Made by a program: the position numbers and the translations under genes. The notes under the pieces are model-generated. The model was not told the DNA's origin, did not search any database, and was given only the letters and a program-made list of their open reading frames with translations. Below, piece after piece: positions 5,298-25,627 of a stretch of DNA of 35,439 bases. This DNA comes from Candidatus Zambryskibacteria bacterium RIFCSPLOWO2_01_FULL_35_19. Lineage in GTDB: Bacteria > Patescibacteriota > Minisyncoccia > Phycocordibacterales > WO2-35-19. Within the stretch, counting starts at the first letter, position 1; each line of letters starts with the position of its first letter. Location: contig MHWA01000014.1 in assembly GCA_001825335.1 (NCBI GenBank), positions 1-35,439 on the forward strand, read 5' to 3'.

Positions 5298-5367
5298 AAT
5301 TTTAAATTTCGTAACCCTTATTTCGTTACTCGTTTTCATTTTACCATTTGCTATAATAAAAACAAAT

Positions 5368-6258
5368 ATGCCTTATAAAATAAACACCCTCAAAAAAGCC
5401 GACTGGCCCCCTCTTTTAAAAGAGATTAATCAACTTCCGAATAAGCTTTTTTATGTTGGCAAAGTGGCAGATTGGTCTCGGAAACTTCTTTGCGTAGTAG
5501 GGGCTCGCAAAAATACAAATTATGGTAGAGAAGCCGTTGAGACTTTTATAGAGAGTTTGCGTGGCTACCCGATTACCATTGTTTCTGGTTTGGCTTTAGG
5601 TATAGACTCTATCGCTCATCGAGCAGCTCTTAAAAACAACCTTCCCACTATCGCCGTCCCCGGTTCTGGACTTTCGCTTGAAGTTTTACATCCTCAATCT
5701 CATACTCACTTAGCAACAGAGATTATTGAAAAAGGCGGAATGATGATGAATGAATTTGAACCAGAATTTAAAGCTACTCAATGGAGTTTTCCACAAAGAA
5801 ATCGTATTATGGCGGGAATGAGTCATGCCACTTTAGTCATAGAAGCCGAACAAAAGTCAGGCACACTCATCACTGCAAGACTAGCCACCGAATACAACCG
5901 CGATGTTTTGGCCTTACCCGGCAGTATTTTTAATACCACAAGTCAAGGGCCTCATATGCTTATTCGTTTGGGAGCTACACCTATCCGTGATAGTAATGAT
6001 ATTTTGGAAGCTCTGCATTTGGAATCCCACTCCGCCTCGTCAGACTCGGCTTCGCGGGACGAGGAAAAATATTTTGATTGTTCGGAAAAAGAGATGCTAA
6101 TAATTAAACTTTTAATAGAACCGTTGGAGCGTGATGAAATTTTGCGACAAATAAATACTAAACATCAAATCCCTATTGGGGAAATCCAAACTTTCCTCTC
6201 TCTCCTCGAGCTCAAAGGCCTTATTAAAGAATCTCTTGGAGAAATCCGCCTCACTTAA
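5368..6258 (+). CDS. dprA: DNA processing protein DprA/Smf
   Basis: Rossmann-fold DprA motifs are present (VVGARKNTNYG, IVSGLALGIDSIAHRAAL, GTLITARLATEYNRDVLALPG). The start is set at ATG 5368, because the ORF-track extension overlaps serS antisense. A TATAAT box at 5352-5357 lies just upstream. Confidence 0.9.
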   Translation: MPYKINTLKKADWPPLLKEINQLPNKLFYVGKVADWSRKLLCVVGARKNTNYGREAVETFIESLRGYPITIVSGLALGIDSIAHRAALKNNLPTIAVPGSGLSLEVLHPQSHTHLATEIIEKGGMMMNEFEPEFKATQWSFPQRNRIMAGMSHATLVIEAEQKSGTLITARLATEYNRDVLALPGSIFNTTSQGPHMLIRLGATPIRDSNDILEALHLESHSASSDSASRDEEKYFDCSEKEMLIIKLLIEPLERDEILRQINTKHQIPIGEIQTFLSLLELKGLIKESLGEIRLT

Positions 6259-6268
6259 TCTTAAAATG

Positions 6269-6293
6269 AAATACAATGGGCGCCATTGTATTT
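6269..6293. repeat. REP-like hairpin copy 1 (aaatacaatgg-gcg-ccattgtattt). It could also act as the dprA terminator.
   Basis: 11-bp perfect stem with a 3-nt GCG loop followed by a T-run. The same core recurs at 6947-6973 and 7915-7933 with the loop reverse-complemented (CGC). Confidence 0.7.
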
Positions 6294-6315
6294 TTAGTTG
6301 TGGTATAATTTTATT

Positions 6316-6946: not shown

Positions 6947-6973
6947 AAAATACAATGGCGCCCATTGTATTTT
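6947..6973. repeat. REP-like hairpin copy 2 (aaaatacaatgg-cgc-ccattgtatttt), inverted relative to copy 1
   Basis: Same stem as copy 1, with loop CGC instead of GCG, which marks the opposite orientation. A T-run follows. Confidence 0.7.
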
Positions 6974-7068
6974 TGTTAAGGTAAATTTTAATAGTAGTTG
7001 ACAATAATCTTCAATTGTTATTTACTTATAGATAGAAGCCCTCAGGGGTTAATAAAAAGGAGGTATAA

Positions 7069-7890: not shown

Positions 7891-7914
7891 ATAAAATTTT
7901 TTCTTCCTAAAAAA

Positions 7915-7933
7915 TACAATGGCGCCCATTGTA
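7915..7933. repeat. REP-like hairpin copy 3 (tacaatgg-cgc-ccattgta), same orientation as copy 2
   Basis: The 19-nt core is identical to copy 2. No T-run follows, so it is not simply a terminator. Confidence 0.65.
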
Positions 7934-8011
7934 AAAAGTATCAAGGTTGAACCTTGACGTTTTGTTTACAAATTTTGCTTTTTTTGTTTTTATAACTTAT
8001 TCTGTATAAAT

Positions 8012-10219
8012 ATGAAATTACTAATAGTAGAGTCCCCAGCCAAAGCAAAAACCATTGGCAAATATGTAGGCAGTGATTATGAAGTCGTCGCTAGCGTCGG
8101 TCATATTCGTGATTTGCCAAAATCAAATAAAAAAGCCATTGATATAGAAGGTGGTTTTATTCCGCATTATGAAATTTCCAAAGGTAAAGAAAGAGTGGTG
8201 GCTGAAATAAGACAATTGGCCAAAAAAGCCGACGAGATATTGCTAGCCACCGACCCCGACCGAGAAGGAGAAGCCATCGCTTGGCATTTAGCTGAAGAGA
8301 TTAAAAAATTGAAGATTAAAGATTTAAAGGTTAGAAGAGTTAGTTATCATGAAATTACAAAAGAAGCTATTGAAGAGGCATTGAAACACCCACGAGATAT
8401 AGATCAAAATTTGAGAAAAGCTCAAGAAGCTCGCCGAGTTTTGGATCGCCTCGTTGGTTATGACCTTTCTGGTTTAATTTGGAAAAAGGTGCGCTACGGA
8501 CTTTCGGCTGGCCGAGTCCAATCCCCCGCTTTGCGTATTTTAATGGAAAAAGAAAGAGAAATCAGAGCTTTTAAACCAGAGACCTTTTTTGTTATTTCTG
8601 CCAAACTAGAAACTGAAAAAAAAGAGAGCTTTACTGCCGTTTGTGAAGAAGAACCAAAAACAAAAAAAGAAGCAGACGAAATTTATGATGTGGCAAAAAA
8701 TGGAAAATGGAAAGTTCTTGACGTTGTAGAAACAGAAACAAAAAGAAGTCCAAGGGCTCCATTTACCACATCCACACTCCAACAAACCGCAAGCACAAGA
8801 CTTGGTTTTTCACCCAAAAGGACAATGATGACTGCTCAAAAACTTTACGAAGCAGGACATATCACTTATATGCGCACAGACAGTGCAACAATGGCAGGAA
8901 GCGCTCTTCTTCAGATTAAACAAGTTGTTTCAAAAAAATACGGAGCAAATTTGCATCAAACAAGAGTATTCAAAACAAAATCCAAAAATGCACAGGAAGC
9001 TCACGAAGCAATCAGACCAACTCATTTTGAAAAAGAAAATATAGGTCACAGCGAAGACCAAAAAAGATTATATAAATTGATTTGGGAAAGATCTGTAAGT
9101 AGTCAAATGAAAGATGCAAAAGTAATGAGAACAAAAATAATAACTGAAGTAAGCCCCTCGACTTCGCTCGGGACAGAAAAATTTGTACCAAATTTTTCTG
9201 CAAACGGCTCTAGAATTTTAGAGGATGGTTGGCTTCTTTGTGATAGTAGAGCAAAAAGAGAAGATGTGATTCTTCCAAAATTAAAACAAAATGATGATTT
9301 AAATTTACTTAATATTGAAAAATTAGAAAAACAAACAGAACCACCAAACAGATATAGCGAGGCAGGACTCATTAAAGAACTAGAAAAAAGAGGCATCGGT
9401 AGACCTTCAACTTATGCTTCTACTATAAACACCATAATAGAAAGAGAGTATGTAGAAAAAGATGGCAAAACTTTAAAACCAACTGATACTGGAGATGTTG
9501 TTTCTACATTTCTAGAAGATAACTTTGAAGAATATATAAGCGACACATTTACTGCAGAAATGGAAGATGAATTAGATGATATAGCTCTCGGAAAAAGAGA
9601 ATACGAACCAACCTTGCGAGAATTTTATAAACCTTTCTTGAAAGAAATAAAAGATAAAGAAAAGACCGCCAAATTAACTACTTTGGGTGACGCTGACCCA
9701 AAATTAAAATGCCCACTTTGTCATTCTGGTATGATCATTAAACTCGGTAGAGGAGGTAAATTTTTAAGTTGTGATAAATTTCCAGAATGTTCTGGCATGA
9801 GAAATATTGATGGTAGTGAAATAAAAGAGGCAGAAGCTTTAGGTACTGATCCAGAAACAAAATTGCCAGTATTTGTAATGGACGGCAGATTTGGTCCATA
9901 TATTCAACTTGGAGTAAAAGATGAAAAAAACAAAAAACCAAGAAGATCCAGTATACCAAAAGATAAAAATCCAAATGAAGTTACTTTAGAAGAAGCTCTT
10001 AAATATTTGAGTCTACCAAGAGAGCTCGGGCCATATCCGGAAACTGGAGAAACGATTTCAGCCAATGTTGGCAGATTTGGACCATATATAGTTCATCAAA
10101 AAGATTTTCGTTCACTTAAAGAAGATGATGTTTATACTATCACTTTAGAGAGAGCCATAGAAATATTGAAAGAGCCCAAAAAAGTCGGTCGCCGTGGTTG
10201 GAAAAAGAAAACAAAATAA
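8012..10219 (+). CDS. topA: DNA topoisomerase I
   Basis: TOPRIM N-terminus (LLIVESPAKAKTIGKY, ATDPDREGEAIAWH), active-site region ITYMRTDS and a C-terminal Zn ribbon (CPLCHSGMIIK...CDKFPEC). Confidence 0.95.
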   Translation: MKLLIVESPAKAKTIGKYVGSDYEVVASVGHIRDLPKSNKKAIDIEGGFIPHYEISKGKERVVAEIRQLAKKADEILLATDPDREGEAIAWHLAEEIKKLKIKDLKVRRVSYHEITKEAIEEALKHPRDIDQNLRKAQEARRVLDRLVGYDLSGLIWKKVRYGLSAGRVQSPALRILMEKEREIRAFKPETFFVISAKLETEKKESFTAVCEEEPKTKKEADEIYDVAKNGKWKVLDVVETETKRSPRAPFTTSTLQQTASTRLGFSPKRTMMTAQKLYEAGHITYMRTDSATMAGSALLQIKQVVSKKYGANLHQTRVFKTKSKNAQEAHEAIRPTHFEKENIGHSEDQKRLYKLIWERSVSSQMKDAKVMRTKIITEVSPSTSLGTEKFVPNFSANGSRILEDGWLLCDSRAKREDVILPKLKQNDDLNLLNIEKLEKQTEPPNRYSEAGLIKELEKRGIGRPSTYASTINTIIEREYVEKDGKTLKPTDTGDVVSTFLEDNFEEYISDTFTAEMEDELDDIALGKREYEPTLREFYKPFLKEIKDKEKTAKLTTLGDADPKLKCPLCHSGMIIKLGRGGKFLSCDKFPECSGMRNIDGSEIKEAEALGTDPETKLPVFVMDGRFGPYIQLGVKDEKNKKPRRSSIPKDKNPNEVTLEEALKYLSLPRELGPYPETGETISANVGRFGPYIVHQKDFRSLKEDDVYTITLERAIEILKEPKKVGRRGWKKKTK

Positions 10220-10250
10220 CTTGCAAAAATAAATAAAAGATTATAATAAA

Positions 10251-11636
10251 ATGGAAAATGATGTAGAAAAAATAATCGCCACTCTAAAAAAAACAACCAA
10301 AGAAGAAAAAGAGCTCATAAGAAAAGCTTACCGATTTGCCAAAACGGCGCATCAAGGTCAAAAAAGAAATAGTGGTGAACCGTATTTCAACCATTTGTTT
10401 GAAACTGCCAAAAATATCGCCGAACTTGATATGGATGCGGTATCAATCTCTTCTGGTTTTTTGCATGATGTTTTGGAAGATACTGATACAAAACCAGAAA
10501 CAATAGAAAAAGAATTTGGAAAAGAAATTTTATTTATAGTTGAGGGAGTGTCCAAAATCGGCAACTTACGATACCACGGAGCAGATCGTTACAATGAAGC
10601 TTTGCGTAAACTACTTTTTGCTACTTCTAAAGATTTGCGAGTGTTGATAGTCAAGTTTTGTGACAGACTTCATAATATGGAGACTCTCTCCTTTGTGCCA
10701 AAAGAAAAACAAGAGCGTATTGCCAGAGAGACCTTAGAAATATATGTGCCCATCGCTTATAGATTGGGTATCAGAAAACTATCAAGAAGACTTGAAGATT
10801 TGGCCTTCCCTTTTGTTGACAAAGAAGGTTTTGACGAAATATCTTCACTTTTAAAAGAAAGCCATGATGAAAGATTGGAAAGTTTGGAAAAATTTAGAAA
10901 AAAAGTTTCTAAAGAATTGGTAGATTCGGGTCTTACTAATTTTCATTCTGATTACAGAGTTAAAACTATTTATAGTCTTTATAAAAAATATCTAAGATAT
11001 AAAAAAGATATTGAGAAAATAAATGATATCTTGGCTATGAGATTAACGGTGGCAAAAACTGAAGATTGTTATAGAGCCCTTGGTATCATTCACTCTGTTT
11101 GGAAACCTCAACCCGGCAAAATAAAAGACTACATTGCTTTCCCAAAACAAAATGGCTACCAAAGTCTACATACCACAGTTTTTACTGGTAATGGCGACTT
11201 AGTAGAAATACAAATACGAACAGAAGAAATGCATAAAGAAGCAGAGTATGGTATCGCTGCCCACTCTCTATATAAAGCTGGAGAAAAGAATAAAAAAGAG
11301 ATTATGCCGTGGATACAGACTATGCTCAATTATTCTGTAAATGAAATAAAGAAAAATTTCTTAAGCCAGAGAATTTTTGTCTTTACTCCTAAAGGAGATG
11401 TGATTGACTTGCCAGTAGGAGCTTCGGCTATTGATTTTGCTTATAATATACACTCCGATATTGGAAACAAAATGGCAGGAGTAAAAATAGATGGCAAACT
11501 TTCTGCCATCAATAGCATTCTTAAAGATAGAGAAATAGTAGAAGTTATTACCAAAAAATCAGCTAAACCAAATCGTAAATGGTTAGAATATGCCAAAACT
11601 GCTTTGGCCAAAAAACATATCAAAAACAATACTTAG
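10251..11636 (+). CDS. rel: Short RelA/SpoT-homolog (p)ppGpp synthetase/hydrolase with HD, synthetase and TGS domains and no C-terminal ACT region
   Basis: HD motif HDVLEDT, synthetase motif GYQSLHTTV...EIQIRT, and TGS region FVFTPKGDVIDLPVGASAIDFAY. Only 461 aa. Confidence 0.88.
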   Translation: MENDVEKIIATLKKTTKEEKELIRKAYRFAKTAHQGQKRNSGEPYFNHLFETAKNIAELDMDAVSISSGFLHDVLEDTDTKPETIEKEFGKEILFIVEGVSKIGNLRYHGADRYNEALRKLLFATSKDLRVLIVKFCDRLHNMETLSFVPKEKQERIARETLEIYVPIAYRLGIRKLSRRLEDLAFPFVDKEGFDEISSLLKESHDERLESLEKFRKKVSKELVDSGLTNFHSDYRVKTIYSLYKKYLRYKKDIEKINDILAMRLTVAKTEDCYRALGIIHSVWKPQPGKIKDYIAFPKQNGYQSLHTTVFTGNGDLVEIQIRTEEMHKEAEYGIAAHSLYKAGEKNKKEIMPWIQTMLNYSVNEIKKNFLSQRIFVFTPKGDVIDLPVGASAIDFAYNIHSDIGNKMAGVKIDGKLSAINSILKDREIVEVITKKSAKPNRKWLEYAKTALAKKHIKNNT

Positions 11637-12610
11637 AGACTAAAATTTTTGATTGAGTAAAGGTCTTCATCTATTGGGATATCCTCTTCTTTTTTTATTT
11701 CTTCAGGAGTCCTATCGTCAAGACCAGCACTTTCAGTCGGCTCCCCGACTACTTCGTTCGTCGGAGTCCCTTGTTGAAGCATATTTAAAATATCTACCAA
11801 ATCATCATTTGAGAAAAAATCTATCATCAATTTGCCCCCTTTTTCTTTCTTTTCAATTTTTACTCTAGTACCCAAACTTTCAGTAAACTTTTCTTCTAAA
11901 GAACAAATTTCTGGGTCCAGATGAGAATCAAATTTTCGAACTCTTTCTATGGCGATTTTACGAGCAGCTTGTTCAGCATCACGAACATTCATTTTGTACA
12001 AGATAATATCTTTAAAGAGAACCTTTTGTTCTTCTGGTCTTTCTATAAGCATAAGAAGAGGTCTCGTGTGTCCTTCATTTATCTTCCCTTCAGATAAAGC
12101 ATTGAGCATATCTTCTGGTAAATCTAAAATGCGCAAAGAATTGCTGACATAGACCCTGCTCTTGCCAATCTTTTGAGCCACTTGATGATGCTTAAATCCA
12201 AATTTTTCTGTTAACTTTTTAAAAGCTCTGGCTCTTTCTACTGGATTAAGATCTTCTCTTTGTACATTTTCAATAATAGCTAGCTCTAATTTCATTAAAT
12301 CATCGGCATTTTCATTACCCTCACCCGTTCGAATAATGACTGGCACTTGAGAAAGTCCAGCAATTTTGGCAGCTCGCAAACGACGCTCGCCTGCTATAAG
12401 CTCATATTCTACTCCCAAACCGTCATCTCTCTCAAACTCCTTTCGAGTAACTACCAATGCTTGAAGCACTCCATACTGCTTGATAGAGTCCGCTAAAGCC
12501 CTTAGAGCATCTTCATCAAATTCGCGACGCGGTTGAAAAGGATTTGGCTTTATTTTATCCAGTTCTACCCAAAATATTGAATTTTGATAAAAATTTGATG
12601 TATTAGACAT
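11633..12610 (-). CDS. parB: ParB/Spo0J chromosome partitioning protein
   Basis: ParB N-terminal box (LVVTRK...YELIAGERRLRAAKIAGL) and an HTH region (HHQVAQKIGKSRVYVSNSLRIL). Confidence 0.9.
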   Translation of the reverse strand: MSNTSNFYQNSIFWVELDKIKPNPFQPRREFDEDALRALADSIKQYGVLQALVVTRKEFERDDGLGVEYELIAGERRLRAAKIAGLSQVPVIIRTGEGNENADDLMKLELAIIENVQREDLNPVERARAFKKLTEKFGFKHHQVAQKIGKSRVYVSNSLRILDLPEDMLNALSEGKINEGHTRPLLMLIERPEEQKVLFKDIILYKMNVRDAEQAARKIAIERVRKFDSHLDPEICSLEEKFTESLGTRVKIEKKEKGGKLMIDFFSNDDLVDILNMLQQGTPTNEVVGEPTESAGLDDRTPEEIKKEEDIPIDEDLYSIKNFSL

Positions 12611-12696
12611 TGTGAACTTATTTTACATTAAAACAATTTAAAATAAAAGCTGAGTATTTTGATTTTTGGGGATTTTGAGGTATATTTTATCTACAA

Positions 12697-12778
12697 GCCA
12701 GAGTGATGAAATTGGTAAACATGCGCGACTCAAAATCGCGTGCCGCAAGGTTTGTGGGTTCAAGTCCCACCTCTGGCA
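12697..12778 (+). tRNA. tRNA-Leu (anticodon CAA)
   Basis: Manual fold: acceptor GCCAGAG/CTCTGGC, anticodon arm GCGCGA-CTCAAAA-TCGCG, long variable arm, T-arm GTGGG-TTCAAGT-CCCAC, discriminator A. Confidence 0.85.
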
Positions 12779-12779
12779 C

Positions 12780-13007
12780 ATGCAAAATAAAATCAAAAAA
12801 GGAATCTACAAACATTTTAAAGGTAAGGAGTATGAGGTGATTGATGTTGGGACACATTCAGAAACTTTAGAACCACACGTAGTTTATCAAGCGCTTTATG
12901 GAGAACAAAAAATTTGGGTCCGCCCGCTTTCAATATTTCTAGAAGAAGTAGACAAACCAGAAATAAATTATAAAGGGCAGAGATTTACTTATGTCAGAGA
13001 AAAATAA
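12780..13007 (+). CDS. DUF1653-family small protein
   Basis: The 75-aa product YKHFKGKEYEVIDVGTHSETLEPHVVYQALYGEQKIWVRPLSIF matches my recollection of the DUF1653 pattern. The start is set at ATG 12780 because the ORF-track extension overlaps tRNA-Leu. Confidence 0.65.
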   Translation: MQNKIKKGIYKHFKGKEYEVIDVGTHSETLEPHVVYQALYGEQKIWVRPLSIFLEEVDKPEINYKGQRFTYVREK

Positions 13008-13965
13008 TAAACCAAAAATTATTGTAATCCTCGGGCCAACCGCTAGTGGCAAAAGTGATGTTGCTGTAGAGCTTGCCCTTCGACTTCGCTCAGGACAAGC
13101 CAAAAAATTTGGAACTAAAGGGGCAGAGGTTATTTCTGCTGATTCAAGACAGGTATATAAAGGACTTGATATTGGCACTGGTAAAATTACTAAAAAAGAA
13201 ATGAAAGGAATAAAGCATCACCTGCTTGATGTGATAAGTCCCCGCAAACAATTTTCTGCTTCCGATTTTGTCCGTATAACAAATGACGCGATCGCGCAGA
13301 TTGTTATATCTGGGAAGATACCCATTGTCTGTGGTGGTACTGGATTTTATATTGATGCTTTGCTTGGTGAAAAACAACTTGCCGAAGCGCCACCAAATGA
13401 AAAATTGAGAGCTCAACTTGAAAAGAAAAGTGTTGAAGAATTATTTAAAATATTAAAAAAACTAGACCCAGAAAGAGCCAAAAATATAGACGCCAAAAAT
13501 GGAAGAAGATTAGTTAGAGCAATTGAGATATGTGAAGCTTTGGGCCCCAACTCCGCTTCTCGCTTCGCTCAAGCTACGCTGGGCAAGAAAGTCCCCTCAA
13601 AATACGATGTCATTAAAATAGGAATAAAAACAGAAGAAAAAGAATTAAAAAATAGGATAAATAAAAGAATAGAAAAGTGGTTTAAAATGGGACTTTTGAA
13701 AGAAGTCAGAGATTTACATCAAAAAGGTCTCTCTTGGAAACGAATGTCAGAGCTTGGACTTGAATATAAGATAGTGGCCAATCATCTCCAAAAAAAGATT
13801 TCAAAAGAAGAAATGATAGAGAGGATGCAGATAGAAACTTGGCAATACGCTAAACGTCAAAAACAGTGGTTTAAAGATAAAAACATCATTTGGCTTCCAT
13901 CAAAAATAAATTTAGTAGAAAAAAAAGTAAAAAGATTTTTAGAAGGCGGGCCCACGAGGATTTGA
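12991..13965 (+). CDS. miaA: tRNA dimethylallyltransferase
   Basis: P-loop ILGPTASGKS, ISADSRQVYKGLDIGTGKIT and GGTGFYIDAL. It carries two GC-rich in-frame patches (see findings). The 3' end overlaps tRNA-Trp on the opposite strand. Confidence 0.9.
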   Translation: MSEKNNKPKIIVILGPTASGKSDVAVELALRLRSGQAKKFGTKGAEVISADSRQVYKGLDIGTGKITKKEMKGIKHHLLDVISPRKQFSASDFVRITNDAIAQIVISGKIPIVCGGTGFYIDALLGEKQLAEAPPNEKLRAQLEKKSVEELFKILKKLDPERAKNIDAKNGRRLVRAIEICEALGPNSASRFAQATLGKKVPSKYDVIKIGIKTEEKELKNRINKRIEKWFKMGLLKEVRDLHQKGLSWKRMSELGLEYKIVANHLQKKISKEEMIERMQIETWQYAKRQKQWFKDKNIIWLPSKINLVEKKVKRFLEGGPTRI

Positions 13966-14017
13966 ACCCCGGTCGCTCCTTTTGGAGAGGAGAATTCTAC
14001 CACTGAACTATAGGCCC
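13947..14017 (-). tRNA. tRNA-Trp (anticodon CCA)
   Basis: The reverse complement reads GGGCCTATAGTTCAGTGGTAGAATTCTCCTCTCCAAAAGGAGCGACCGGGGTTCAAATCCTCGTGGGCCCG. Anticodon loop is CTCCAAA and the discriminator is G. Confidence 0.85.
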
Positions 14018-14033
14018 AACGAGTTAAATATAC

Positions 14034-14058
14034 ACAAAAAAAACGGGTTTGTCCCGTT
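14034..14058 (-). terminator. Rho-independent terminator downstream of rpmG
   Basis: On the minus strand, aacggg-acaaa-cccgtt is followed by T8. A T-run on the plus side also allows bidirectional function. Confidence 0.55.
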
Positions 14059-14062
14059 CTTT

Positions 14063-14239
14063 TTATTTTTTTATTTTTTTTAAAGGTAGTTTAGCTTCAC
14101 TAAAAACCACTCTCTTACGGAGCTTTTTAGAGTATTTTTTGAGTTCTATTTTACGCTCTACTTTACGCTTATTTTTGCGTGTTAAATAAACCTCGCCGGT
14201 TTTTTTGTTTACTAGAGCTATAAGTTGATCTTGTGACAT
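14063..14239 (-). CDS. rpmG: 50S ribosomal protein L33, 58 aa, absent from the ORF track
   Basis: Manual translation gives MSQDQLIALVNKKTGEVYLTRKNKRKVERKIELKKYSKKLRKRVVFSEAKLPLKKIKK. The Y-x-T-x-KNKR...LELKKY...LRK..x.F.E.K signature is that of L33. Confidence 0.8.
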   Translation of the reverse strand: MSQDQLIALVNKKTGEVYLTRKNKRKVERKIELKKYSKKLRKRVVFSEAKLPLKKIKK

Positions 14240-14329
14240 TCCATTAGAAATTAAATATTAATATAGTAAATTTTGTCTAAAATTACGCTTATATTTATAG
14301 CATATCCCACCAAATATTACAATAAATTT

Positions 14330-15175
14330 CTAGCGGGACAAGTTATTTATATAAGCCTTAAACTTAAGCATCAAATCTTTAGTCATTACTCCAACTTTAC
14401 CATCTGCCACCTGAAAATCATCAACTTTGACAATAGGGACAATATCTTTAAATGAGGAAGTAATAAAAATTTCATCAGCCATCTTTAGTTCATCTTGATA
14501 GACAATCCTTTCTTCTATTTTATATCCGGCTTCAGTAGCAAGCTCTAATGTCACTTTTTTAGTTATACCCCCTAAGACATTCTCGGCTGGGGTAATCAAA
14601 GCCTTATCTTTAACAAGCAAAATGTTGCTGGTAGTGCATTCCAAAACTTCTCCATCATTTATATAAAGCACTTCCACCGCCTTTTCTCCATTTTTCCATT
14701 CTTGCAAATTGACTGCTTTAATATAGTTTGTAGTCTTATACTCTGGCATTTCACGCTGATGGTTGTAAGTTAAAATATTAGCTCCTCTTTCAAAATATTC
14801 TTCTGGTAAAGGCACAAAGGGTTCAGCTGTAATATAAAAAGTAGCATTTTCAAAATCATATTCAATTCCATTTATGGTTTTCCCGCCAGTAAGTATCATC
14901 CTTATGGTGGCCCTTTCTTTTATGTCAGATTTTTTTATTATCTCAACAATTTTTTTCTCACAGGAATCTTCAGTAATAGGGATATTTAATCCAAGAGCAT
15001 GAGCTCCATCTGTAAATCTCTGCCAATGGTCAGCAAAACGAAAAGGCCTGCCGTTAAAGGCAGCCAACCCATCATAAATACCATAACCACGCAAAAGACC
15101 TATGTCTTCTATACCAACCTTGGCATCCTCTAAAGGCATTATCTCTCCATTCAAGAAACAATATTTTTTGTTCAT
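14330..15175 (-). CDS. Class IV (fold type IV) PLP aminotransferase, either branched-chain or D-amino-acid aminotransferase-like
   Basis: 281 aa with LLRGYGIYDG, RFxDHWxRF, a KTTNY region and GITK...ER. The layout is typical of the IlvE/Dat/PabC family. Substrate cannot be assigned by eye. Confidence 0.75.
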   Translation of the reverse strand: MNKKYCFLNGEIMPLEDAKVGIEDIGLLRGYGIYDGLAAFNGRPFRFADHWQRFTDGAHALGLNIPITEDSCEKKIVEIIKKSDIKERATIRMILTGGKTINGIEYDFENATFYITAEPFVPLPEEYFERGANILTYNHQREMPEYKTTNYIKAVNLQEWKNGEKAVEVLYINDGEVLECTTSNILLVKDKALITPAENVLGGITKKVTLELATEAGYKIEERIVYQDELKMADEIFITSSFKDIVPIVKVDDFQVADGKVGVMTKDLMLKFKAYINNLSR

Positions 15176-15189
15176 TTTATAATATTATA

Positions 15190-15233
15190 ATAAAAAAAAG
15201 AAAATCGCCACAGTCCGTAAACTGCGACGATTT
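15190..15233 (-). terminator. Rho-independent terminator
   Basis: The minus strand reads aaatcgtcgcagt-ttacgg-actgtggcgattt followed by a T-rich run. Confidence 0.5.
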
Positions 15234-15251
15234 AAAGTGTAGACGTAGCCA

Positions 15252-15524
15252 TCAAGTCACCCAAGGTTCCACATATCTGATACTTATATGGGAATCGTTA
15301 AGACTCCCAAAATGAACAAGTTCTCCACTCTTTTGTCGATTAAGTGGATCTTTAATCCATTCAAGAGATACGTGTTCGTCTGTAACATGACGAACTTTAA
15401 ATGGACCCCTCCCGTAAGAGTGCTCCCATCTTCTTAAACGTTCATTTACATCCGGGTCTTTGTCAGTTGGTTTCAACCCTACCAAGGACCCGGCAATAAT
15501 TTCTGAGCTCATTTCTGTGTTCAT
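15252..15524 (-). CDS. Hypothetical small soluble protein of about 90 aa
   Basis: ORF with a GGGAG SD 8 nt upstream of ATG 15524. The ORF-track start at 15569 would run through the palindrome and intergenic region. I recognise no family. Confidence 0.5.
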   Translation of the reverse strand: MNTEMSSEIIAGSLVGLKPTDKDPDVNERLRRWEHSYGRGPFKVRHVTDEHVSLEWIKDPLNRQKSGELVHFGSLNDSHISIRYVEPWVT

Positions 15525-15545
15525 AAATAACTCCCAACTAAATAT

Positions 15546-15563
15546 TATCACATATATGATATA
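15546..15563. promoter_or_regulatory. AT-rich dyad (tatca-catata-tgata), a candidate operator
   Basis: It shares the 13-mer catatatgatata with the perfect palindrome at 17096-17113. It lies between the HTH-MurA-like gene stop and the start of the downstream small gene. Confidence 0.35.
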
Positions 15564-15569
15564 TTGCAA

Positions 15570-17087
15570 CTATATACCTGTGATTTTCTCAATAGAGGCT
15601 CCTATACTATTTAACCTCTCTACTACATCCTCATAGCCACGATTTATAGAATAGACATTGCGAAGTATAGATACTCCTGGAGCTGCTAACATAGCAATAA
15701 GAATAATCATCGCTGGACGTAGAGCGGCTGGGCAAACTACTTGAGCAGGTTTTAGTTTTGTTGGTCCTGTTATAAAAGCCCTATGTGGATCAACTAGAGT
15801 AACGCTGGCTCCTAATTTATTTAATTCTGTAAAGTATATGGCTCTGTTTTCCCACATCCAATCATGAATGAGAGTAGTCCCCTTAGCTTGAGTAGCAATT
15901 GGTACAAAAAATGGAAGATTATCAGAATTAATACCCGGATAAGGTTGAGCATGCACTTTATCTTTTAAAGCATACAGTTTTGAAGGAAATATAGTTATGT
16001 CCACCAATTTTGTATTTTTGTTTAAAGCCAAATACTCTTTAGAAAATTCATATTTTAAACCCATAGTTTTTAACTTAGTCAACTCTAGGGCCAAAAAATC
16101 TATTGGACATCTTTCTACTTTTAATTCAGAATTTGTAGTAATGGCAGCACTTATAAACATCATTGATTCAATTGGATCTTCACTATTAAAATATTCAATT
16201 CTTTGATTTATTTCCTTAATACCGTAAACAGTCAGACTGGTAGTACCGATACCTTCTATTTTTACTCCCAATTTTTGGAGAAAGAAACAAACTTCTTGAA
16301 CTTGATAATTTGGTGGAGCAAAGGATATTTTAGTTATACCAGGGGTTAGGGCGGCAGTTATAATAGCATTTTCAGATGCAGTATCACTTGCCTCATACAT
16401 CACAATATTAGCTACTTTTATAGACTTGTTGTTAATAACGTATTTATTATTTAGAGTTTTTATACGAGCACCAAAATCTTCAAACATATAACGATGAGCA
16501 GAAATAGTCCTTTCACCCATTTTGCAACCACCACTATGAAGTAATTCAAAACTCTTAAAATTATGCAACATAGCAGGGATGAGCATCAAACTAGATCTTA
16601 CACTTGCAACAGAAGGATGGGTTAATCCTTTTTTATTAAATTTCTTAGGTGGGTTTATTTCTAAAGTTTGTTTTTCAATCCATTTATTTTTTACCCCTAA
16701 AGCAGAGAATATCTCTAACATTCTATTTACTTCTTCTATTCTTGGAATACCATGCAGTATGGTCGTGCTTTTATTTAAAAGAGAGGCACATAAAAGTCCC
16801 ATGGCCCCATTTTTAGAAGGATTTGTTTTTATACTTCCATGAAGTTTTTTACCTCCATTTATTTTAAAATCTATAGAATCAGAAAGAGATACTATCTTAT
16901 GATCTAGTGCTTCCCCTATTTTTAAAAGCTCACCAGCAGTTAAATTTTGACCACCATTCTCTATCCTAGCTACCGCACTTTGAGAAGTATTAAGTATTTT
17001 AGCTAGTTCACCCTGAGTCAAAGAGCGTTTTTCACGTAACTTTTTTATAAAAACGCCTATAGCTTTCTGATTATCCACCTTTTTCAT
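15570..17087 (-). CDS. XRE-family HTH domain fused to a MurA-like enolpyruvyl transferase (EPSP synthase fold)
   Basis: The N-terminal ~65 aa is LTQGELAKILNTSQSAVARIENGGQN (HTH_3/XRE). The rest aligns by eye to MurA: SKNGAM (K22 region), SGGCKMGERTISAH (Cys115 loop retained) and the C-terminal NRGYEDVVERLNSIGASI. Confidence 0.75.
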   Translation of the reverse strand: MKKVDNQKAIGVFIKKLREKRSLTQGELAKILNTSQSAVARIENGGQNLTAGELLKIGEALDHKIVSLSDSIDFKINGGKKLHGSIKTNPSKNGAMGLLCASLLNKSTTILHGIPRIEEVNRMLEIFSALGVKNKWIEKQTLEINPPKKFNKKGLTHPSVASVRSSLMLIPAMLHNFKSFELLHSGGCKMGERTISAHRYMFEDFGARIKTLNNKYVINNKSIKVANIVMYEASDTASENAIITAALTPGITKISFAPPNYQVQEVCFFLQKLGVKIEGIGTTSLTVYGIKEINQRIEYFNSEDPIESMMFISAAITTNSELKVERCPIDFLALELTKLKTMGLKYEFSKEYLALNKNTKLVDITIFPSKLYALKDKVHAQPYPGINSDNLPFFVPIATQAKGTTLIHDWMWENRAIYFTELNKLGASVTLVDPHRAFITGPTKLKPAQVVCPAALRPAMIILIAMLAAPGVSILRNVYSINRGYEDVVERLNSIGASIEKITGI

Positions 17088-17095
17088 ACCAAAAG

Positions 17096-17113
17096 TATAT
17101 CATATATGATATA
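17096..17113. promoter_or_regulatory. 18-bp perfect palindrome tatatcatatatgatata in a divergent intergenic region, a candidate operator
   Basis: It is an exact reverse-complement palindrome. It lies 9 nt upstream of the HTH-MurA-like start (17087, minus strand) and 11 nt upstream of the divergent gene (17124). Confidence 0.4.
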
Positions 17114-17123
17114 AAATAAACAT

Positions 17124-17591
17124 ATGAAAAAAGATAAAAAACAAAAAGTTACACCTTTATTGAAAAAAACTTATATAACCACTATAGAAAATAGCATCGG
17201 TTCAAAGATGTTTTGTAATCTTTACGCCAAAGTAAATGGTAAAAATATTGATATCACTAGGGGTGGTGATTTGTCTTGCGCCGTTTTTGTTTCTTCAATA
17301 TTATTTTTATTTAAACTCATTAAGGAAAGACACGCCACGGTAAGTAGTACGATAAAAGATTTAAAACAATCCGGTTGGATAGAAATAGAGAAACCAAAAA
17401 TTGGATGTGTCTTAGTTTGGGAAGAGAAGAAATTTAAAAGTGGCGAGAAACACAAGCATATAGGTTTTTATATAGGTAAAGAAAAAGCTATCAGCAATAA
17501 TACCAAGCTCAAATACCCCACCAAACATATGTGGGATAAATTTGATAGGAGAAAAGTAGAATTAATTCTTTGGAATCTAAAATTAAAATAA
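17124..17591 (+). CDS. Hypothetical protein, possibly with a papain-like NlpC/P60-CHAP fold
   Basis: 155 aa. It has a conserved-looking Cys (GGDLSCAVFVSSIL) followed about 60 aa later by GCVLVWEE...HKHIGFYIG, the Cys...His arrangement of NlpC/P60/CHAP hydrolases. Recognition is by eye only. Confidence 0.4.
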   Translation: MKKDKKQKVTPLLKKTYITTIENSIGSKMFCNLYAKVNGKNIDITRGGDLSCAVFVSSILFLFKLIKERHATVSSTIKDLKQSGWIEIEKPKIGCVLVWEEKKFKSGEKHKHIGFYIGKEKAISNNTKLKYPTKHMWDKFDRRKVELILWNLKLK

Positions 17592-17637
17592 TAAAAAATC
17601 AGAGCTTCGACTAGCGAATGTTGGTTATTTTTGATTG

Positions 17638-17720
17638 TGCGCCGGGCTGGATTCGAACCAGCGTAGGCCGAAGCCGACAGATTTACAGTCTGTTGTAATT
17701 GACCACTCTACCACCGACGC
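17638..17720 (-). tRNA. tRNA-Tyr (anticodon GTA)
   Basis: The reverse complement reads GCGTCGGTGGTAGAGTGG...CAGACTGTAAATCTG...long variable arm...GGTTCGAATCC...CCGGCGCA. Discriminator is A. Confidence 0.85.
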
Positions 17721-17781
17721 ATTTACTCACAATAGTTTACCAAATATTCTGCCTTTCTGCCAACTTAATTACATACCTATT

Positions 17782-20496
17782 TTAAACCCCTACCCCAGCA
17801 GAGAGAGTCTCTAGAATAGAAGACCCGATAATAGCGCCACGACGGCCTTTTTTGATATCAAAGACAAATTCACCTACATCAGTTTTGGATGGATCATTTT
17901 TGACAGAAACAGACACTACTCCCCCTTTCAATATTTCTTTAGAGATGATAAAAGAAGCTACTTGATTTAGTATTTTATTTTGAATCACCCTTTTCAAAGG
18001 CCTTGCGCCGTATTGAGGGTTGTATCCTTCTTTGGCTAAATATTCATAAACTTCATCAGTTAATTCTAATGAAATCTCTTTAATAGCCAATCTCTCTCTT
18101 ACCAAATCAATCTGAATTTTAACAATCTCTCTTATAGCTTCCATAGGTAATATATCAAAGATAACAATATCATCTACTCTGTTTAAAAATTCTGGTCTGA
18201 AGAAATCTTTCATAGCTTCCATCACTTTTTCTTTAACTCCGGCATATTCACCCCCTTTTATATCTCTATCACCGAAGCCCATTTTTTCCATCTTGTCTAT
18301 ATAATTGGCCCCAATGTTTGAGGTCATAATAATAATAGTATTTTTGAAGTTAACAGTTCGGCCTTTAGAATCAGTTAGCCGACCGTTGTCCAAAACTTGA
18401 AGGAAAACGTTAAAAACTTCTGGATGAGCTTTTTCAATTTCATCAAACAAAACAATAGAGTATGGACGATGTCTAACCATCTCCGTTAAACCACCACCAT
18501 CATCAAAACCGACATAACCAGGGGGAGCGCCTATCAGTTTAGAAACAGAGTGCTTCTCCATAAATTCTGACATATCCACCCGAATCAAGGCTTTTTCATC
18601 ATCAAACATAAATTCAGCCAAAGCTTTAGTCAGCTCTGTTTTGCCAACTCCAGTTGGACCTAGAAAAATAAAAGAGCCAATTGGTTTGTTTGGGTCAGAA
18701 ATGCCGGCACGAGAGCGTTTGATGGTATCAGCTATTTTTTTGACCGCCTCATCTTGACCTACTATGCGTTTCTTCAATTCATCTTCCATCCTAGAAAGTT
18801 TTTCGGCTTCTTCTTCAAGCATTCTAGAAACAGGAATACCAGTCCACTTGGCTACTATATTGGCTATATCATTTTCTGTTATTTCTTCTTTTAAGATACG
18901 ACGAGAACTTTGAAGTTTTTTGAGTTTTTTCATATTGGCGTCAAGACTTTTTTCTAAAGCAGGAATCTGTCCATAACGAACTTCAGCTGCTTTGCCAAGA
19001 TCTACTCTAGCTTCAGCTTCTTCAGCTTCTAAACGAGCAAATTCAAGCTCTTTTTTAATCCTTTTTATTTCTCCAACACTTTCTTTTTCATTTTTCCATT
19101 TCAAATCAATTTCTCTAGTTTTTTCTCTCAAGTCAGCAATTTCTTTTTCAATTTCTTGAAGACGAGTTTTGGCTTTACTATTTTTACCTTTGGCTTCTTT
19201 TTTAAGAGCTTCTTTTTCAATTTCAAGTTTTATCACTTTTGAGTTAGTTTCTTGAAGCACTGGTGGCATATTTTCAAGCGAGATTTTTAAATGACTCGAA
19301 GCTTCATCTATAAGGTCAACTGCTTTATCTGGCAAAAATCTATCAGCAATATATCTAGCAGAAAGTACCACCGCCGCTTTAATAGCGTCATCAGTTATAC
19401 GAACCCCGTGATAGAGTTCATATTTTTCTTTTAATCCGCGCAATATAGTTGTGGCGTCATCTATTGATGGCTCACTTATAAAGACCGATTGAAAACGACG
19501 AGTCAAAGCTGGGTCTTTTTCTATATGTTTTTGATATTCTTTGATGGTAGTAGCTCCGATGGCTCGCAATTCCCCTCTGGAAAGAGGAGGTTTCAACATA
19601 TTGGAGGCATCAAGAGAACCTTCGGCTGATCCAGCACCAACAATAGTATGAATTTCATCTATAAAAAGTATAATCTTACCGTCTGATTTTTCTATTTCTT
19701 TTATGATATTTTTGAGTCTTTCTTCAAATTCACCTCTGTATTTGGTCCCCGCCACTAAAAGCCCCAAATCAAGAGATACTATTTCTTTATCTTTTAAAGA
19801 CTCTGGTGCATTACCAGAAGCAACTCTCATAGCCAAACCTTCAGCGATAGCGGTTTTACCTACACCCGCTTCTCCAATTAAGATAGGATTATTTTTGGTC
19901 CGACGAGAAAGAATCTGGATAATACGAGAAATTTCTTCATCTCTACCAATGACTGGGTCAAGTTTGTTTTCGCGAGCCAATTTGGTAAGAGAGCGAGTAT
20001 ACTTTAGGATGTTTTTATTTTTACGATAAGTTTTGGTCTCTGGCATTCTTCCTTGTTTTATTTCTTGAATCAAAAACAAAACTTTTTCTTTTTCAATTTT
20101 GAAACGAGAGAGAGTGTCTTTAGCTAAACTTGGAATATCAAGACAAGCAATAAAAATATGTTCAGTAGAAACAAATTCATCATTCATAGATTTCGCTACT
20201 TTTGAAGAATGTTCAATGATTTGAGCCAACTCCGGAGTAAGAAAAATCTGATAAGAGGGGGACATAGTGCCACCAGAAGCAGTGCCTTCCATTGCTTCAA
20301 AAATAGAATCAGTCAAAAGAATAGTATCTACTTCCATTTTATCCAAAATAGAAGCCACCATACTTTCTTCTTGTAAAATAAGTGCGGCCAAAAGATGAAG
20401 TGGTTCTACGTGATTTTGACTACGTTCGATAACCAGCTCGTGAGCTTTTCTGATGACTTCTTTGGCTTTAGTTGTAAATTGATTAAATGGTGTCAT
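17782..20496 (-). CDS. clpB: Chaperone ClpB (Hsp100 disaggregase)
   Basis: 904 aa with a Clp_N domain, NBD1 ([23 protein letters not shown]), a long coiled-coil M-domain and NBD2 ([24 protein letters not shown]). Confidence 0.95.
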
Positions 20497-20546
20497 AAAT
20501 AAAAATATTATGGCTATATTATAGCAGAAATCTGTATTAAATCAAG

Positions 20547-21362
20547 CTACTTAGCCAATTCAGCTAAAGCTTTTGGAGTAGCGGATTTTATGATATTGAT
20601 AGGGGTATAAGAATATTCAGTATCCAATTCTCCAACTGGTGCTTCAAGACCTACCACTTCTCCCGAAAGATTTAATACTGGACTACCAAAATGACTTCTA
20701 GAAACTTTTAAATCAGAAAAAATCTTTTTTATTGTGACTTTATCTTCATCAAACTTTAATTGAAAAACCCTACCAATAGAGGCGGCGTTGGAACTCAAAC
20801 CACTGATAGCTACCAAACTTTGCCCTATCTTCAAATCATCAGAATTACCAAAAATAGCTGGATAAAAAGTATATTTTAGATCTTTCAAAGGAGCGTCTAC
20901 TTTTAAGAAAACCAGCCCCGCTTCACTATTGATTGAGGTTTTACTAACAGGATAACTCTGCCCATCATGAAAAGAAATCGTGTAAGAAGCAGCAACATTG
21001 TAACTTCGCAAATCAGCTACAATCACCCCATCTCCAGAGACCACCAAACCAAGACCAGAGACAACTTCAGTGCCATCAGCTCCAGTGGTTTTTAATCTAA
21101 CGATAGATTTTTCATTTTTGGCAATTGCTTCCAACACTCTATCTTCTTCGTTGACAATTACCGTAGTAACTACTTTGTCTGGCTTACCCGGTTCAGTTAC
21201 TACTCGCTCAATAGTTTTCTCCACCACTCGGTTAATGGTTTGAGTGACTTCAACTGGTGCTTCTGAAAGTAAAGTAAAAGTGATAATACCAGTAGCAATT
21301 GAAGTTACAAATGTAACCAATAAGACGATAAGTATTAATTGATGTTTAGTCAAATCTTCCAT
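20547..21362 (-). CDS. Membrane-anchored trypsin/HtrA-like protease-fold protein whose catalytic triad appears degenerate
   Basis: An N-terminal TM helix is followed by an S1C-like layout (GLGLVVSGDGVIVAD..., GLVFLKV, GNSDDLKIGQSLVAISG). SHFGSPVLNLSGEVVGL replaces GNSGGPLxNxxGEVIGI. Confidence 0.55.
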   Translation of the reverse strand: MEDLTKHQLILIVLLVTFVTSIATGIITFTLLSEAPVEVTQTINRVVEKTIERVVTEPGKPDKVVTTVIVNEEDRVLEAIAKNEKSIVRLKTTGADGTEVVSGLGLVVSGDGVIVADLRSYNVAASYTISFHDGQSYPVSKTSINSEAGLVFLKVDAPLKDLKYTFYPAIFGNSDDLKIGQSLVAISGLSSNAASIGRVFQLKFDEDKVTIKKIFSDLKVSRSHFGSPVLNLSGEVVGLEAPVGELDTEYSYTPINIIKSATPKALAELAK

Positions 21363-21446
21363 ATTTAGTTAAATAATACCAAAATAAAAAATTAAAAACA
21401 ATTGTTAGTGGATATCCCACTTCGCCAAAACTACACAAGACAAGAT

Positions 21447-22697
21447 TTATTTAACTATCTTCTTGAGAGCGGAGATAAAAGAGTCTAAATCAGATTTTTT
21501 GGTATTACGACCCAAAGTTATACGAAGAGACGAGGAGGCACACTCTTTATTACTCACAGCTTCAATCACATAAGAGCCATTTTCTAGACTCAAAGCATGA
21601 CAAGCAGAAGCGGCCGAGACCGCAAAACCGAGAGTGTCTAATTTAATAACCAAAAACTCACTATCTATTTTTTGGAAACCCGACTTCGCTGAAAGCTTCG
21701 GCGAGGCGAAGCATATATTAATGTTGTTAGGTAATCTATTTTCTAAATCACCATTTAAGGAAGTGTTTGGTATTTCTTTTAAAATTTCAGTTATTGCATA
21801 ATCACGCAACTTTGTTAAACTTTTTGATTCTTTTTCCCTCTTTTTTGTTGCGATTTCCAAAGCTTTAGCGAGGCCGGCAACAGCAACTACATTTTCTGTC
21901 CCAGATCTTAATCCTCCTTCCTGTCCCCCACCAAAAATAATGGGGGAGATTTTGACTCCAGTTTTGACAACTAAAAGACCCATTCCTCTTGGCCCATATA
22001 TTTTAATACCATCCAAGACAAGCAAATCAGCTCCCAATCTTTCCAAAGAAACATTTTCATAAAGAACACTTTGACTAGCATCCACCAAAAGATATGGCCC
22101 TACCAAAAGTTTATTTTGTACAAGGAGAGTCCTTGTACTTTTATATTCTCTTATTACTTTAGCTATTTTTTGGATCGGTTGGATAGTGCCTATTTCGTTG
22201 TTTGCATGTTGAATAGCTATTAAAACAGTATTTTCTTTTATTTCTTTTTTGATTGAATCTGGATTTATTATTCCTTTTTCATTTGGAGTAATAAAAGAAA
22301 CTTCTGCTTTCCCTTCTTTTAATAAATATTTGATCGGTTCCAAAACTGCTGGATGCTCTATTGTTGAGACTATGATATGTGGCAAAGCAAAACCAAAGTC
22401 GGACTTTGGTTTTGTGCCAAGAATGACATCTTCTCGGCAAATTCCTAAAATAGCAATATTTAATGATTCGGTGCCAGAGGCAGTAAAAAAAACTTCGCTA
22501 GCTTTGCAATGCAAAATACGAGCAATCCTTATTCTCGCTTCCTCTAGTATGTTTTTAGCCCGCTCCCCTTCTGTGTGTAAAGAAGAAGGATTAGCCCAAA
22601 AATCTTTTTGAATTTTTGTCATCTCTTTTGCCACACTTAAATCAACCGGCGTGATAGAGGCATAATCTAGAAAGATTCTTTTTTCTTTGTTTTTCAT
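21447..22697 (-). CDS. Cysteine desulfurase (class V aminotransferase, NifS/IscS-like)
   Basis: IFLDYASITP, SLHTEG, FTASGTESLN, HANNEIGTIQP, DASQS, RSGTENV and AASACH (active-site Cys loop). Confidence 0.88.
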   Translation of the reverse strand: MKNKEKRIFLDYASITPVDLSVAKEMTKIQKDFWANPSSLHTEGERAKNILEEARIRIARILHCKASEVFFTASGTESLNIAILGICREDVILGTKPKSDFGFALPHIIVSTIEHPAVLEPIKYLLKEGKAEVSFITPNEKGIINPDSIKKEIKENTVLIAIQHANNEIGTIQPIQKIAKVIREYKSTRTLLVQNKLLVGPYLLVDASQSVLYENVSLERLGADLLVLDGIKIYGPRGMGLLVVKTGVKISPIIFGGGQEGGLRSGTENVVAVAGLAKALEIATKKREKESKSLTKLRDYAITEILKEIPNTSLNGDLENRLPNNINICFASPKLSAKSGFQKIDSEFLVIKLDTLGFAVSAASACHALSLENGSYVIEAVSNKECASSSLRITLGRNTKKSDLDSFISALKKIVK

Positions 22698-25507: not shown

Positions 25508-25627
25508 CAAAATTACACAATATTTTTTAAAATAATTCTATACTAAACGCTTACTTGTCCCGCCGTAGCTTTATGCAAAGGAGGAGCGTCCTAATATTGT
25601 GTTTGTTGTAATAAATGATATAATGCA

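Follow-up and report, generated by a model that had tools for sequence, protein, structure and literature searches.

A 24-nt DNA unit in topA and miaA of Candidatus Zambryskibacteria and its relationship to hairpin repeats that flank small GIY-YIG nuclease genes

How does one and the same short GC-rich sequence come to lie within several genes of a bacterium? The question is raised by a 35,439-nt stretch of DNA (hereafter, the window; 36% GC) from Candidatus Zambryskibacteria, a groundwater bacterium, where the 10-mer CGACTTCGCT occurs on the plus strand exactly three times, at positions 9159 (in topA), 13081 (in miaA) and 21681 (in a class-V aminotransferase gene). A first-pass annotation of this DNA had estimated well below one occurrence, and dinucleotide shuffling of the window bears this out, with an expectation of 0.01 and none of 100 shuffles reaching three. 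The same annotation assigned five GC-rich patches, in these genes and in dprA, to a single family and likened them to Rickettsia palindromic elements (RPEs). We find that only the topA patch and the first miaA patch score as one element, the other three falling within the null range of the matrix described below. Each of these two is probably a solo copy of one discrete 24-nt DNA unit, CCY-TCGACTTCGCTC-RGG-ACARGC, itself a member of a family of hairpin mini-repeats that spans many phyla. The cross-phylum distribution of the unit and its candidate partner, a GIY-YIG nuclease gene, are the main interest of this locus, and neither had been raised in the first-pass annotation.

The host genes named there agree with Pfam matches, the cysteine desulfurase being assigned to the class-V aminotransferases:

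5179-6258: dprA
8012-10219, plus strand: topA, DNA topoisomerase I (Pfam Topoisom_bac, Toprim, Zn_ribbon_Top1, Toprim_C_rpt)
12991-13965, plus strand: miaA, tRNA isopentenyltransferase (Pfam IPPT, 1.9e-72)
21447-22697, minus strand: class-V aminotransferase, IscS/NifS-like cysteine desulfurase (Pfam Aminotran_5; best PDB match IscS2, 3e-69)

The 24-nt unit in miaA and topA

The two copies of the unit are:

13076-13100, plus strand: canonical unit CCCT-TCGACTTCGCTC-AGG-ACA-AGC in miaA, encoding ALRLRSGQ
9154-9178, plus strand: unit CCCC-TCGACTTCGCTC-GGG-ACA-GAA in topA, encoding SPSTSLGT, with the final two bases of the tail diverged

Compared to the 24-nt consensus, the miaA copy has no mismatches (13077-13100) and the topA copy has two (9155-9178), with 0.00 such matches expected by chance. 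Scored with a weight matrix that was derived from 126 foreign copies of the unit, the miaA site reaches 43.1 bits and the topA site 34.9 bits, compared to a mean maximum of 8.9 bits and a highest value of 15.8 bits in block-shuffled windows. The count of unit copies in the source genome covers the 35-kb window.

In this lineage of Zambryskibacteria, miaA existed before it acquired its copy of the unit. Among the genome loci that were fetched for comparison (denoted by L-numbers), the sister loci L121 and L122, with nucleotide identities of ~92% and ~73%, respectively, share synteny with the window, and in both of these, the miaA site is empty, GAGCTT being followed directly by GCCAGAAAA (in the longer alignment, by GCCAGAAAATTT). 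The filled site in the window reads GAGCTT[GCCCTTCGACTTCGCTCAGGACAA]GCCAAAAAATTT, a clean gain of 24 nt, or 8 codons (13075-13098), with GCC at both junctions, so that the exact boundaries are ambiguous by this 3-nt repeat. The 8 residues are absent from 32 of the 33 Patescibacteria orthologues and from the MiaA structures in the PDB, where the corresponding position lies between the P-loop helix and the next strand. The empty site gives a direct view of how such a unit lengthens essential proteins of a reduced genome by extra loops. In topA, the L122 locus is 27 nt shorter at the position of the unit, L121 contains a different, perfect palindrome there, and Escherichia coli TopA shows an 8-residue gap. 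The length of this TopA loop varies among 45 related proteins, several of which carry palindromic inserts of their own. These comparisons substantiate the earlier proposal of lineage-specific insertions in length-tolerant loops, including the loop placement, given that solved homologues of TopA and of the aminotransferase are gapped at these places.

The two copies are translated in two different frames, yielding SPSTSLGT in topA and (A)LRLRSGQ in miaA, so that the same nucleotides give rise to unrelated peptides. This is as the first-pass annotation had it and supports its view that conservation operates at the level of nucleotides rather than protein. Stop codons are absent from five of the six frames of the unit. 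Because the unit comprises 8 codons and is open in five of six frames, any copy landing in a surface loop that tolerates it will simply be translated and retained.

The three other GC-rich patches

The remaining patches identified in the first-pass annotation are:

21678-21710, plus strand: GC-rich 33-nt patch in the aminotransferase gene (encoded on the minus strand), containing the third CGACTTCGCT and encoding ASPKLSAKSGF
13546-13587, plus strand: second GC-rich patch in miaA, ~42 nt, encoding PNSASRFAQATLGK and containing CTTCGCTCAAG, which resembles the core of the unit
6026-6064, plus strand: GC-rich patch in the linker of dprA, encoding SHSASSDSASRDE, beyond the end of the DprA domain match

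The aminotransferase patch corresponds to an 11-aa extra segment compared to Archaeoglobus fulgidus IscS2, and an unrelated AT-rich palindrome occupies its site in L122. It has the 10-mer in common with the unit; the remainder of the unit is unrecognizable, and no score of the unit matrix exceeds the null. Read in the orientation of the gene, the patch contains TCAGCGAAGTCGGG, compared to TGAGCGAAGTCGAAGGG in the unit, and judging from the sequence, it may be a rearranged unit. Its hairpin part, AGCTTCGGCGAGGCGAAG (21694-21711), is identical in 18 of 18 positions to L150 19130-19147, from Paceibacterota (E = 0.001 within 2.3 Mb). Short-query BLAST of the three patches against all loci yielded no other match. 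The second miaA patch is absent from L121 and L122 and scores 2.1 bits with the unit matrix, inside the null range. No match to the matrix was detected in the dprA patch; at this place, the sister genomes L121 and L122 have a linker that is AT-rich and about as long. The motif CCCA(A)CTCCGC, which the first-pass annotation had found to be common to the dprA and second miaA patches, is indeed present in both, and no extended counterpart of it was detected in 2.76 Mb of fetched loci. All three patches are real and lineage-specific, and their kinship with the unit is possible.

The unit in other genomes, plasmids and viruses

A search with the 18-mer TCGACTTCGCTCRGGACA, using one genome per species, matched at least 120 loci. 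The full unit, YCCY-TCGACTTCGCTC-RGG-ACA-RGC, is 24-25 nt long with sharp edges: in 125 foreign copies among the matches listed, C occupies position -3 in 119 copies and position -2 in 118, followed by G at +19 in 105 and C at +20 in 92, and position -5 as well as positions from +21 onward are random. The conservation thus reaches beyond the query, so that the foreign matches cannot be due to chance. The closing pair (position -1 with R at +12) is T-A in 90 copies, C-G in 29, T-G in 4 and A-A in 2, a near-perfect covariation. The pair is T-A in the miaA copy and C-G in the topA copy; hence, the two copies belong to different subtypes (CCT/AGG and CCC/GGG, respectively), and neither is a recent copy of the other.

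The unit is represented in at least 14 phylum-level groups. The hosts among the matches listed include Acidobacteriota, Planctomycetota, Verrucomicrobiota, Chloroflexota, Bacteroidota, several classes of Pseudomonadota, Desulfobacterota, Nitrospinota, Cyanobacteriota, Omnitrophota, Eremiobacterota, Binatia, Kiritimatiellota and several Patescibacteria. The unit was also found on 16 viral contigs and on plasmids of Methylomonas, Planktothrix and Sphingomonas. Such near-identity across phyla is unusual for repeats resembling repetitive extragenic palindromes (REPs) and points to either a conserved recognizing enzyme or highly active horizontal spread.

Several arrangements suggest the behavior of a defined module. 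In a GC-rich alphaproteobacterium (L004, 361-426), three 24-nt units are arranged head to tail and would encode repeated PFDFAQD if translated. In L040, L096, L101 and L107, units of exactly 24 nt are nested after GAGC in the loops of related hairpins of the opposite orientation, and in Trichormus (L023), the unit lies inside heptamer repeats. Complementary flanking arms of at least 6 bases surround 18% of the units, compared to 3% for mismatched flank pairs. In low-GC genomes, most units lie outside long open reading frames (ORFs); a few are located deep inside very long ORFs (L083, L087, L098 and a nonribosomal peptide synthetase (NRPS) gene in L074).

Other community members in the source metagenomes carry the unit as well. 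The units break metagenome assemblies, with contigs ending at them, and read depth over the unit is elevated. No empty-site variant of miaA was detected in contigs from four groundwater runs; since these were contigs rather than reads, this absence is uninformative. The units also yield spurious annotated peptides, such as PFDFAQD, LRLRSGQ, PSTSLRT, VLSEVEG and CPERSRR.

Family hairpins on both sides of a small GIY-YIG nuclease gene

By its loop and closing helix, the unit belongs to a wider family of predicted hairpins that combine a short covarying stem with a conserved loop of 11-12 nt (TCGAC-N2-4-GCTC) and a 3' tail that is likewise conserved. The TTCG loop of the family is present in both window copies, closed by CCC/GGG in topA and by CCT/AGG in miaA. 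The copies differ from the family in the tail, which is ACAAGC in miaA and ACAGAA in topA, compared to GA(A/G)CGG. Other TCGAC-N2-4-GCTC sites in unit-bearing loci have fully complementary 3-nt flanks in 22 of 68 cases, compared to 0 of 29 for a scrambled motif, and their stems differ from site to site. Covariation was assessed for 70 sites from GIY-YIG loci that were chosen by the loop pattern alone, ignoring stem pairing. The five inner stem pairs swap among CG, GC, UA and AU, with a covariation score of 0.377, compared to 0.170 for shuffled sites (none of 500 as high) and at most 0.145 with slid partners.

The individual window copies fold weakly. The predicted DNA fold of the miaA site (-4.3 kcal/mol, z = -0.68) and that of the topA site (z = +0.57) are no better than those of shuffled sequences; the AT-rich palindromes in the same genes reach z values of -5.2 to -7.4. 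Accordingly, the claim of the first-pass annotation that an imperfect inverted repeat flanks the miaA copy holds for the arms themselves (gcttgccc and ggacaagc), and the resulting hairpin is predicted to be weak (z about -0.7). The left arm of this repeat is mostly pre-existing host sequence (GCTTG), and the remainder comes from the unit.

The connection to the GIY-YIG gene emerged from the Sphingomonas plasmid, where the unit occupies the last codons of a 106-aa gene annotated as "GIY-YIG nuclease family protein". An inverted doublet of units lies upstream of this gene, one unit at its 3' end and a further doublet beyond. The layout in L110 is the same, with units identical to the 18-mer query, and the GIY-YIG genes of both L217 and L110 are bracketed by units identical to the query or its core. 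A search started from a two-sequence protein alignment led to 80 fetched loci encoding homologues, which are 53-85% identical to the query and typically ~90 aa long, that is, a bare GIY-YIG catalytic domain (Pfam PF01541). The hosts are Sphingomonadales, Dehalococcoidia/SAR202, Gallionellaceae, Methylococcales, Planctomycetota, Nitrospirota, Myxococcales, Zixibacteria, Verrucomicrobiales and others.

Family hairpins (loop TCGAC-N2-5-GCTC) are present within 300 nt of the GIY-YIG gene in 64 of the 80 loci, typically with a reverse hairpin ahead of the start codon, at a distance of 30-60 nt, and a forward one 16-50 nt past the matched region. Hairpin density falls from 3.35 per kb within 100 nt of the gene to 0.08 per kb more than 300 nt away in these loci, and it is 0.005 per kb in unrelated ones. 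The nearest flanking hairpins have the orientation (-,+) in 31 of the 80 loci and (+,-) in 5, and most of the flanking units have GAACGG or GAGCGG as their last bases. The association is limited to one clade of GIY-YIG proteins, typified by L217 and L110. When the ORFs of 136 unit-bearing loci were clustered, only response regulators, ABC ATPases, NRPS and phage terminase were recovered, and no transposase was found.

Hairpin doublets occur in L089, L217, L223, L224, L232 and L246; the copies in the window are single. In L224, L246, L247, L278, L223 and L232, the doublet is repeated in direct order around the gene, [+ -] gene [+ -] or [- +] gene [- +], as though the gene were set in an array of alternating hairpins.

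Comparison with known repeats and nucleases

RPEs are ~100-150 nt long, clearly palindromic and not known outside Rickettsia. The unit resembles them as an in-frame selfish repeat in housekeeping genes that occupies insertion-tolerant loops and is missing from orthologues. Unlike RPEs, it measures 24-25 nt with random flanks, is weakly palindromic and has been found across many phyla as well as on plasmids and viral contigs. The analogy drawn in the first-pass annotation is therefore apt in spirit, the idea of a selfish mini-element that survives inside genes being right in general terms, and fails with respect to size, palindromy and lineage restriction. Two of the RPE families, RPE-4 and RPE-6, have been linked to CGTC-tagged REPs (PMC3733652).

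Further parallels are with REPs, REP doublets (REPINs) and REP-associated tyrosine transposases (RAYTs). The shared features include short, mostly extragenic hairpin repeats with compensating stem changes, often arranged as inverted doublets, and a gene for a single-domain protein of the nuclease type between inverted copies of the repeat. In-frame copies inside genes are likewise known, as occasional cases, for GTAG- and CGTC-tagged REPs (PMC3733652; PMC3116915). However, the flanked gene encodes a GIY-YIG nuclease (PF01541) rather than a HUH/Y1 transposase. The GTAG tag is lacking, the consensus starting with YCCY after an unconserved position -5, and a CGTC start is found only in sphingomonad variants. 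The CGTC families have stems of 8-9 bp and loops of 4-5 nt (PMC3733652), in contrast to the ~5-bp stem and conserved 11-12-nt loop described here, and the loop sequence is conserved across phyla, whereas REPs are usually species-specific.

In size class, precise modular insertion, tandem arrangement (L004) and nesting in other repeats (the heptamers of L023), the unit is similar to the small dispersed repeats (SDRs) of heterocyst-forming cyanobacteria, which are reportedly also nested in other repeats. We know of no enzyme proposed for SDRs. Unlike these, the unit is not confined to heterocyst-forming cyanobacteria; only 1-2 of the 120 matches listed are cyanobacterial. SDRs, described by Elhai et al. 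in 2008 (Genome Res 18:1484), are cited in PMC3116915, PMC5861425 and PMC4390886, according to which they are 21-27 nt long and reported only in Nostocaceae (PMC5861425), and SDR5 inserts between the third and fourth bases of HIP1 (PMC4390886).

The associated gene encodes a ~90-aa single-domain protein of the COG2827 kind. Such small stand-alone GIY-YIG genes ("UvrC-like N-terminal") are present in multiple copies in Caulobacter and are regarded only as putative repair nucleases (PMC1839093). Flanking hairpins are found in the L217/L110 clade only and not in the YhbQ-like clade of Patescibacteria.

In-gene REP-like repeats (PMC3733652), RPEs and the SDRs of Nostocaceae (PMC5861425, PMC4390886) are already described. 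In a searchable library of the literature that is incomplete, so that a prior description is possible, we found no paper on the sequence of the unit or its six-frame peptides, nor any linking GIY-YIG genes with flanking hairpin repeats, REP or YhbQ. Searches of Rfam, at the gathering threshold for the window and 18 loci and at a permissive E-value for the two unit sites, returned only tRNAs and an unrelated nhaA-I. On inspection, the sequence did not fit the motifs that define tRNA T-arm or D-arm mimics, hammerhead or twister cores, attC sites of integrons, CRISPR repeats or DNA uptake sequences, and these readings were dropped.

Origin of the insertions

The explanation that we favor, and consider more likely than not, is that the topA and miaA patches are solo copies of the unit, from the hairpin family that spans many phyla. 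The nuclease would recognize or cut the conserved hairpin loop and, as is thought for RAYT with REP/REPIN (PMC3116915, PMC3733652), would drive the copying of solo units; a unit arriving in a tolerant surface loop would be translated as 8 extra amino acids and retained. A further-reaching reading, with a probability of roughly 0.4, is that an undescribed mobile system, a GIY-YIG counterpart of REP/RAYT, is made up of the hairpins with the TCGAC..GCTC loop and the ~90-aa nuclease between them. Its smallest derivative would be the 24-nt unit, which would cross phyla on plasmid and phage carriers and could write 8 amino acids into essential proteins. The stereotyped bracketing makes the nuclease a testable candidate enzyme and suggests a function for a widespread protein family. 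If such a system exists, small GIY-YIG genes would gain a role beyond putative repair (PMC1839093), and the unit would rank among the smallest discrete mobile units known.

Several observations weigh against the favored explanation. The mobilizing role of the nuclease, including its presumed activity, cut site and transposition intermediate, is modeled on RAYT by analogy. The 24-mer by itself folds no better than shuffled sequences, and topA lacks a clean empty site, the loop being variable in all relatives. The ACARGC-tailed subtype seen in the window is not found next to GIY-YIG genes, the sphingomonad ACAAACGG variant in L110 being the exception. Neither the 35-kb window nor the sister loci contain a GIY-YIG gene, and among the YhbQ-like small GIY-YIG genes of Patescibacteria, only 1 of 73 is flanked by hairpins. 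The latter genes serve as a negative control for the association and, at the same time, leave this genome with no cognate gene in sight. Under the favored reading, the copies described here would, therefore, be orphans that arrived with foreign DNA or were mobilized from elsewhere in the genome. Finally, only three near-copies are present in 1.33 Mb of related Patescibacteria loci, a scarcity that also counts against the RPE-type explanation considered next.

A lineage-specific selfish palindromic element of the RPE type, amplified in this genome and tolerated in genes, would explain why the copies lie in-frame, in different frames, within housekeeping genes, why the miaA copy is missing from the sister genome, and why true in-gene palindromes do exist in these genomes. 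We nevertheless regard it as decidedly improbable because the unit is a weak palindrome of only 24 nt, recurs in identical form in many unrelated phyla and is represented in the window by two subtypes that did not recently derive from each other. Somewhat easier to entertain, albeit still unlikely, is an origin independent of any dedicated enzyme, through uptake of foreign DNA followed by microhomology-mediated integration or through template switching during replication, in which case the GIY-YIG link would be irrelevant here. The GCC at both miaA junctions and the resemblance of the target, GAGCTTG, to the reverse strand of the family loop fit this scenario, as do the presence of the unit in other community members, the dprA gene in the window, and the similarity of the AT-rich palindrome at 22380-22419 to an inverted copy of neighboring sequence. 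However, the unit does not stem from local sequence, and what was inserted coincides with the 24-nt consensus from end to end, without further foreign bases on either side. In addition, an exact 24-nt unit is nested in hairpin loops of unrelated genomes, which argues for a defined unit of excision or insertion, not random fragments.

Function in place, as a peptide motif or as a cis-acting RNA or DNA signal in the mRNA, would account for a conserved loop and a covarying stem, the features expected of a protein- or RNA-binding hairpin. It seems highly implausible given the different frames and unrelated peptides, the lack of the unit in close relatives and nearly all orthologues, the absence of an Rfam match, and the host genes, which are unrelated to one another. 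Coincidence driven by base composition is refuted for the two canonical copies and otherwise carries next to no weight: it draws on nothing except the weakness of the third to fifth patches and is contradicted by three occurrences of the 10-mer against 0.01 expected, two of the 24-mer against 0.00, and the conservation beyond the query in the 125 foreign copies.

Palindromes, other repeats and neighboring features

The aminotransferase gene (minus strand) contains a perfect AT-rich palindrome at 22380-22419, with an AAAGTC-[G/T]-GACTTT center and variable arms, which encodes an 11-aa extra loop (..KPKSDFGFA..). Further palindromes with this center are present in L121 (8316 and 8868, in topA), L122 (20554) and L124 (8310). 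Palindromes in L121 and L122 are located exactly where the window has GC-rich patches in topA and in the aminotransferase gene, so that these loops are either insertion hot spots or sites where inserts replace one another. L122 (21100-21260) retains only the right arm, ACTTTTTGGTTTTAC, of the 22380-22419 palindrome, and the left arm in the window resembles an inverted copy of the neighboring coding sequence, as template switching would give. The TopA loop carries distinct in-frame palindromic inserts in L181, L124 and L127, with tandem CCGAGGACCGTCCTCGG in L181, and the MiaA loop has a 26-aa insert with several nested hairpins in L128 (13411-13512).

A palindrome of the form AAATACAATGG(G/C)GCCCATTGTATTT, with Ts behind it, is found at three intergenic sites of the window (6268-6294, after dprA; 6948-6974, after the next ORF; and 7912-7935, before topA) and resembles a reused intrinsic terminator. 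Another sequence, GCGGGACAAG, is also present three times (7550 and 14333 on the plus strand, 25554 on the minus strand), compared to an expectation of 0.014. The copy that follows the tRNA cluster in an intergenic region (25545-25580, CTTGTCCCGCCGTAGCTTTATGCAAAGGAGGAGC) resembles L174 8190-8240, from an unrelated Patescibacteria locus, and these repeats may represent another small repeat family.

In L121, ~3 kb (12569-15757) separate the tRNA-Leu region from miaA, a segment missing in the window (12787-12991). The identity between the window and L121 is 76-80% in miaA, compared to 91-92% in the topA-relA-parB block, which hints at recombination or replacement of miaA. The tRNA-Trp gene (13945-14017, minus strand) overlaps the last ~20 nt of miaA, which ends at 13965. 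Farther downstream, 15570-17087 (minus strand) encodes a protein with the EPSP-synthase fold (MurA/AroA type) and an N-terminal HTH_3 DNA-binding domain, a seemingly uncommon fusion.

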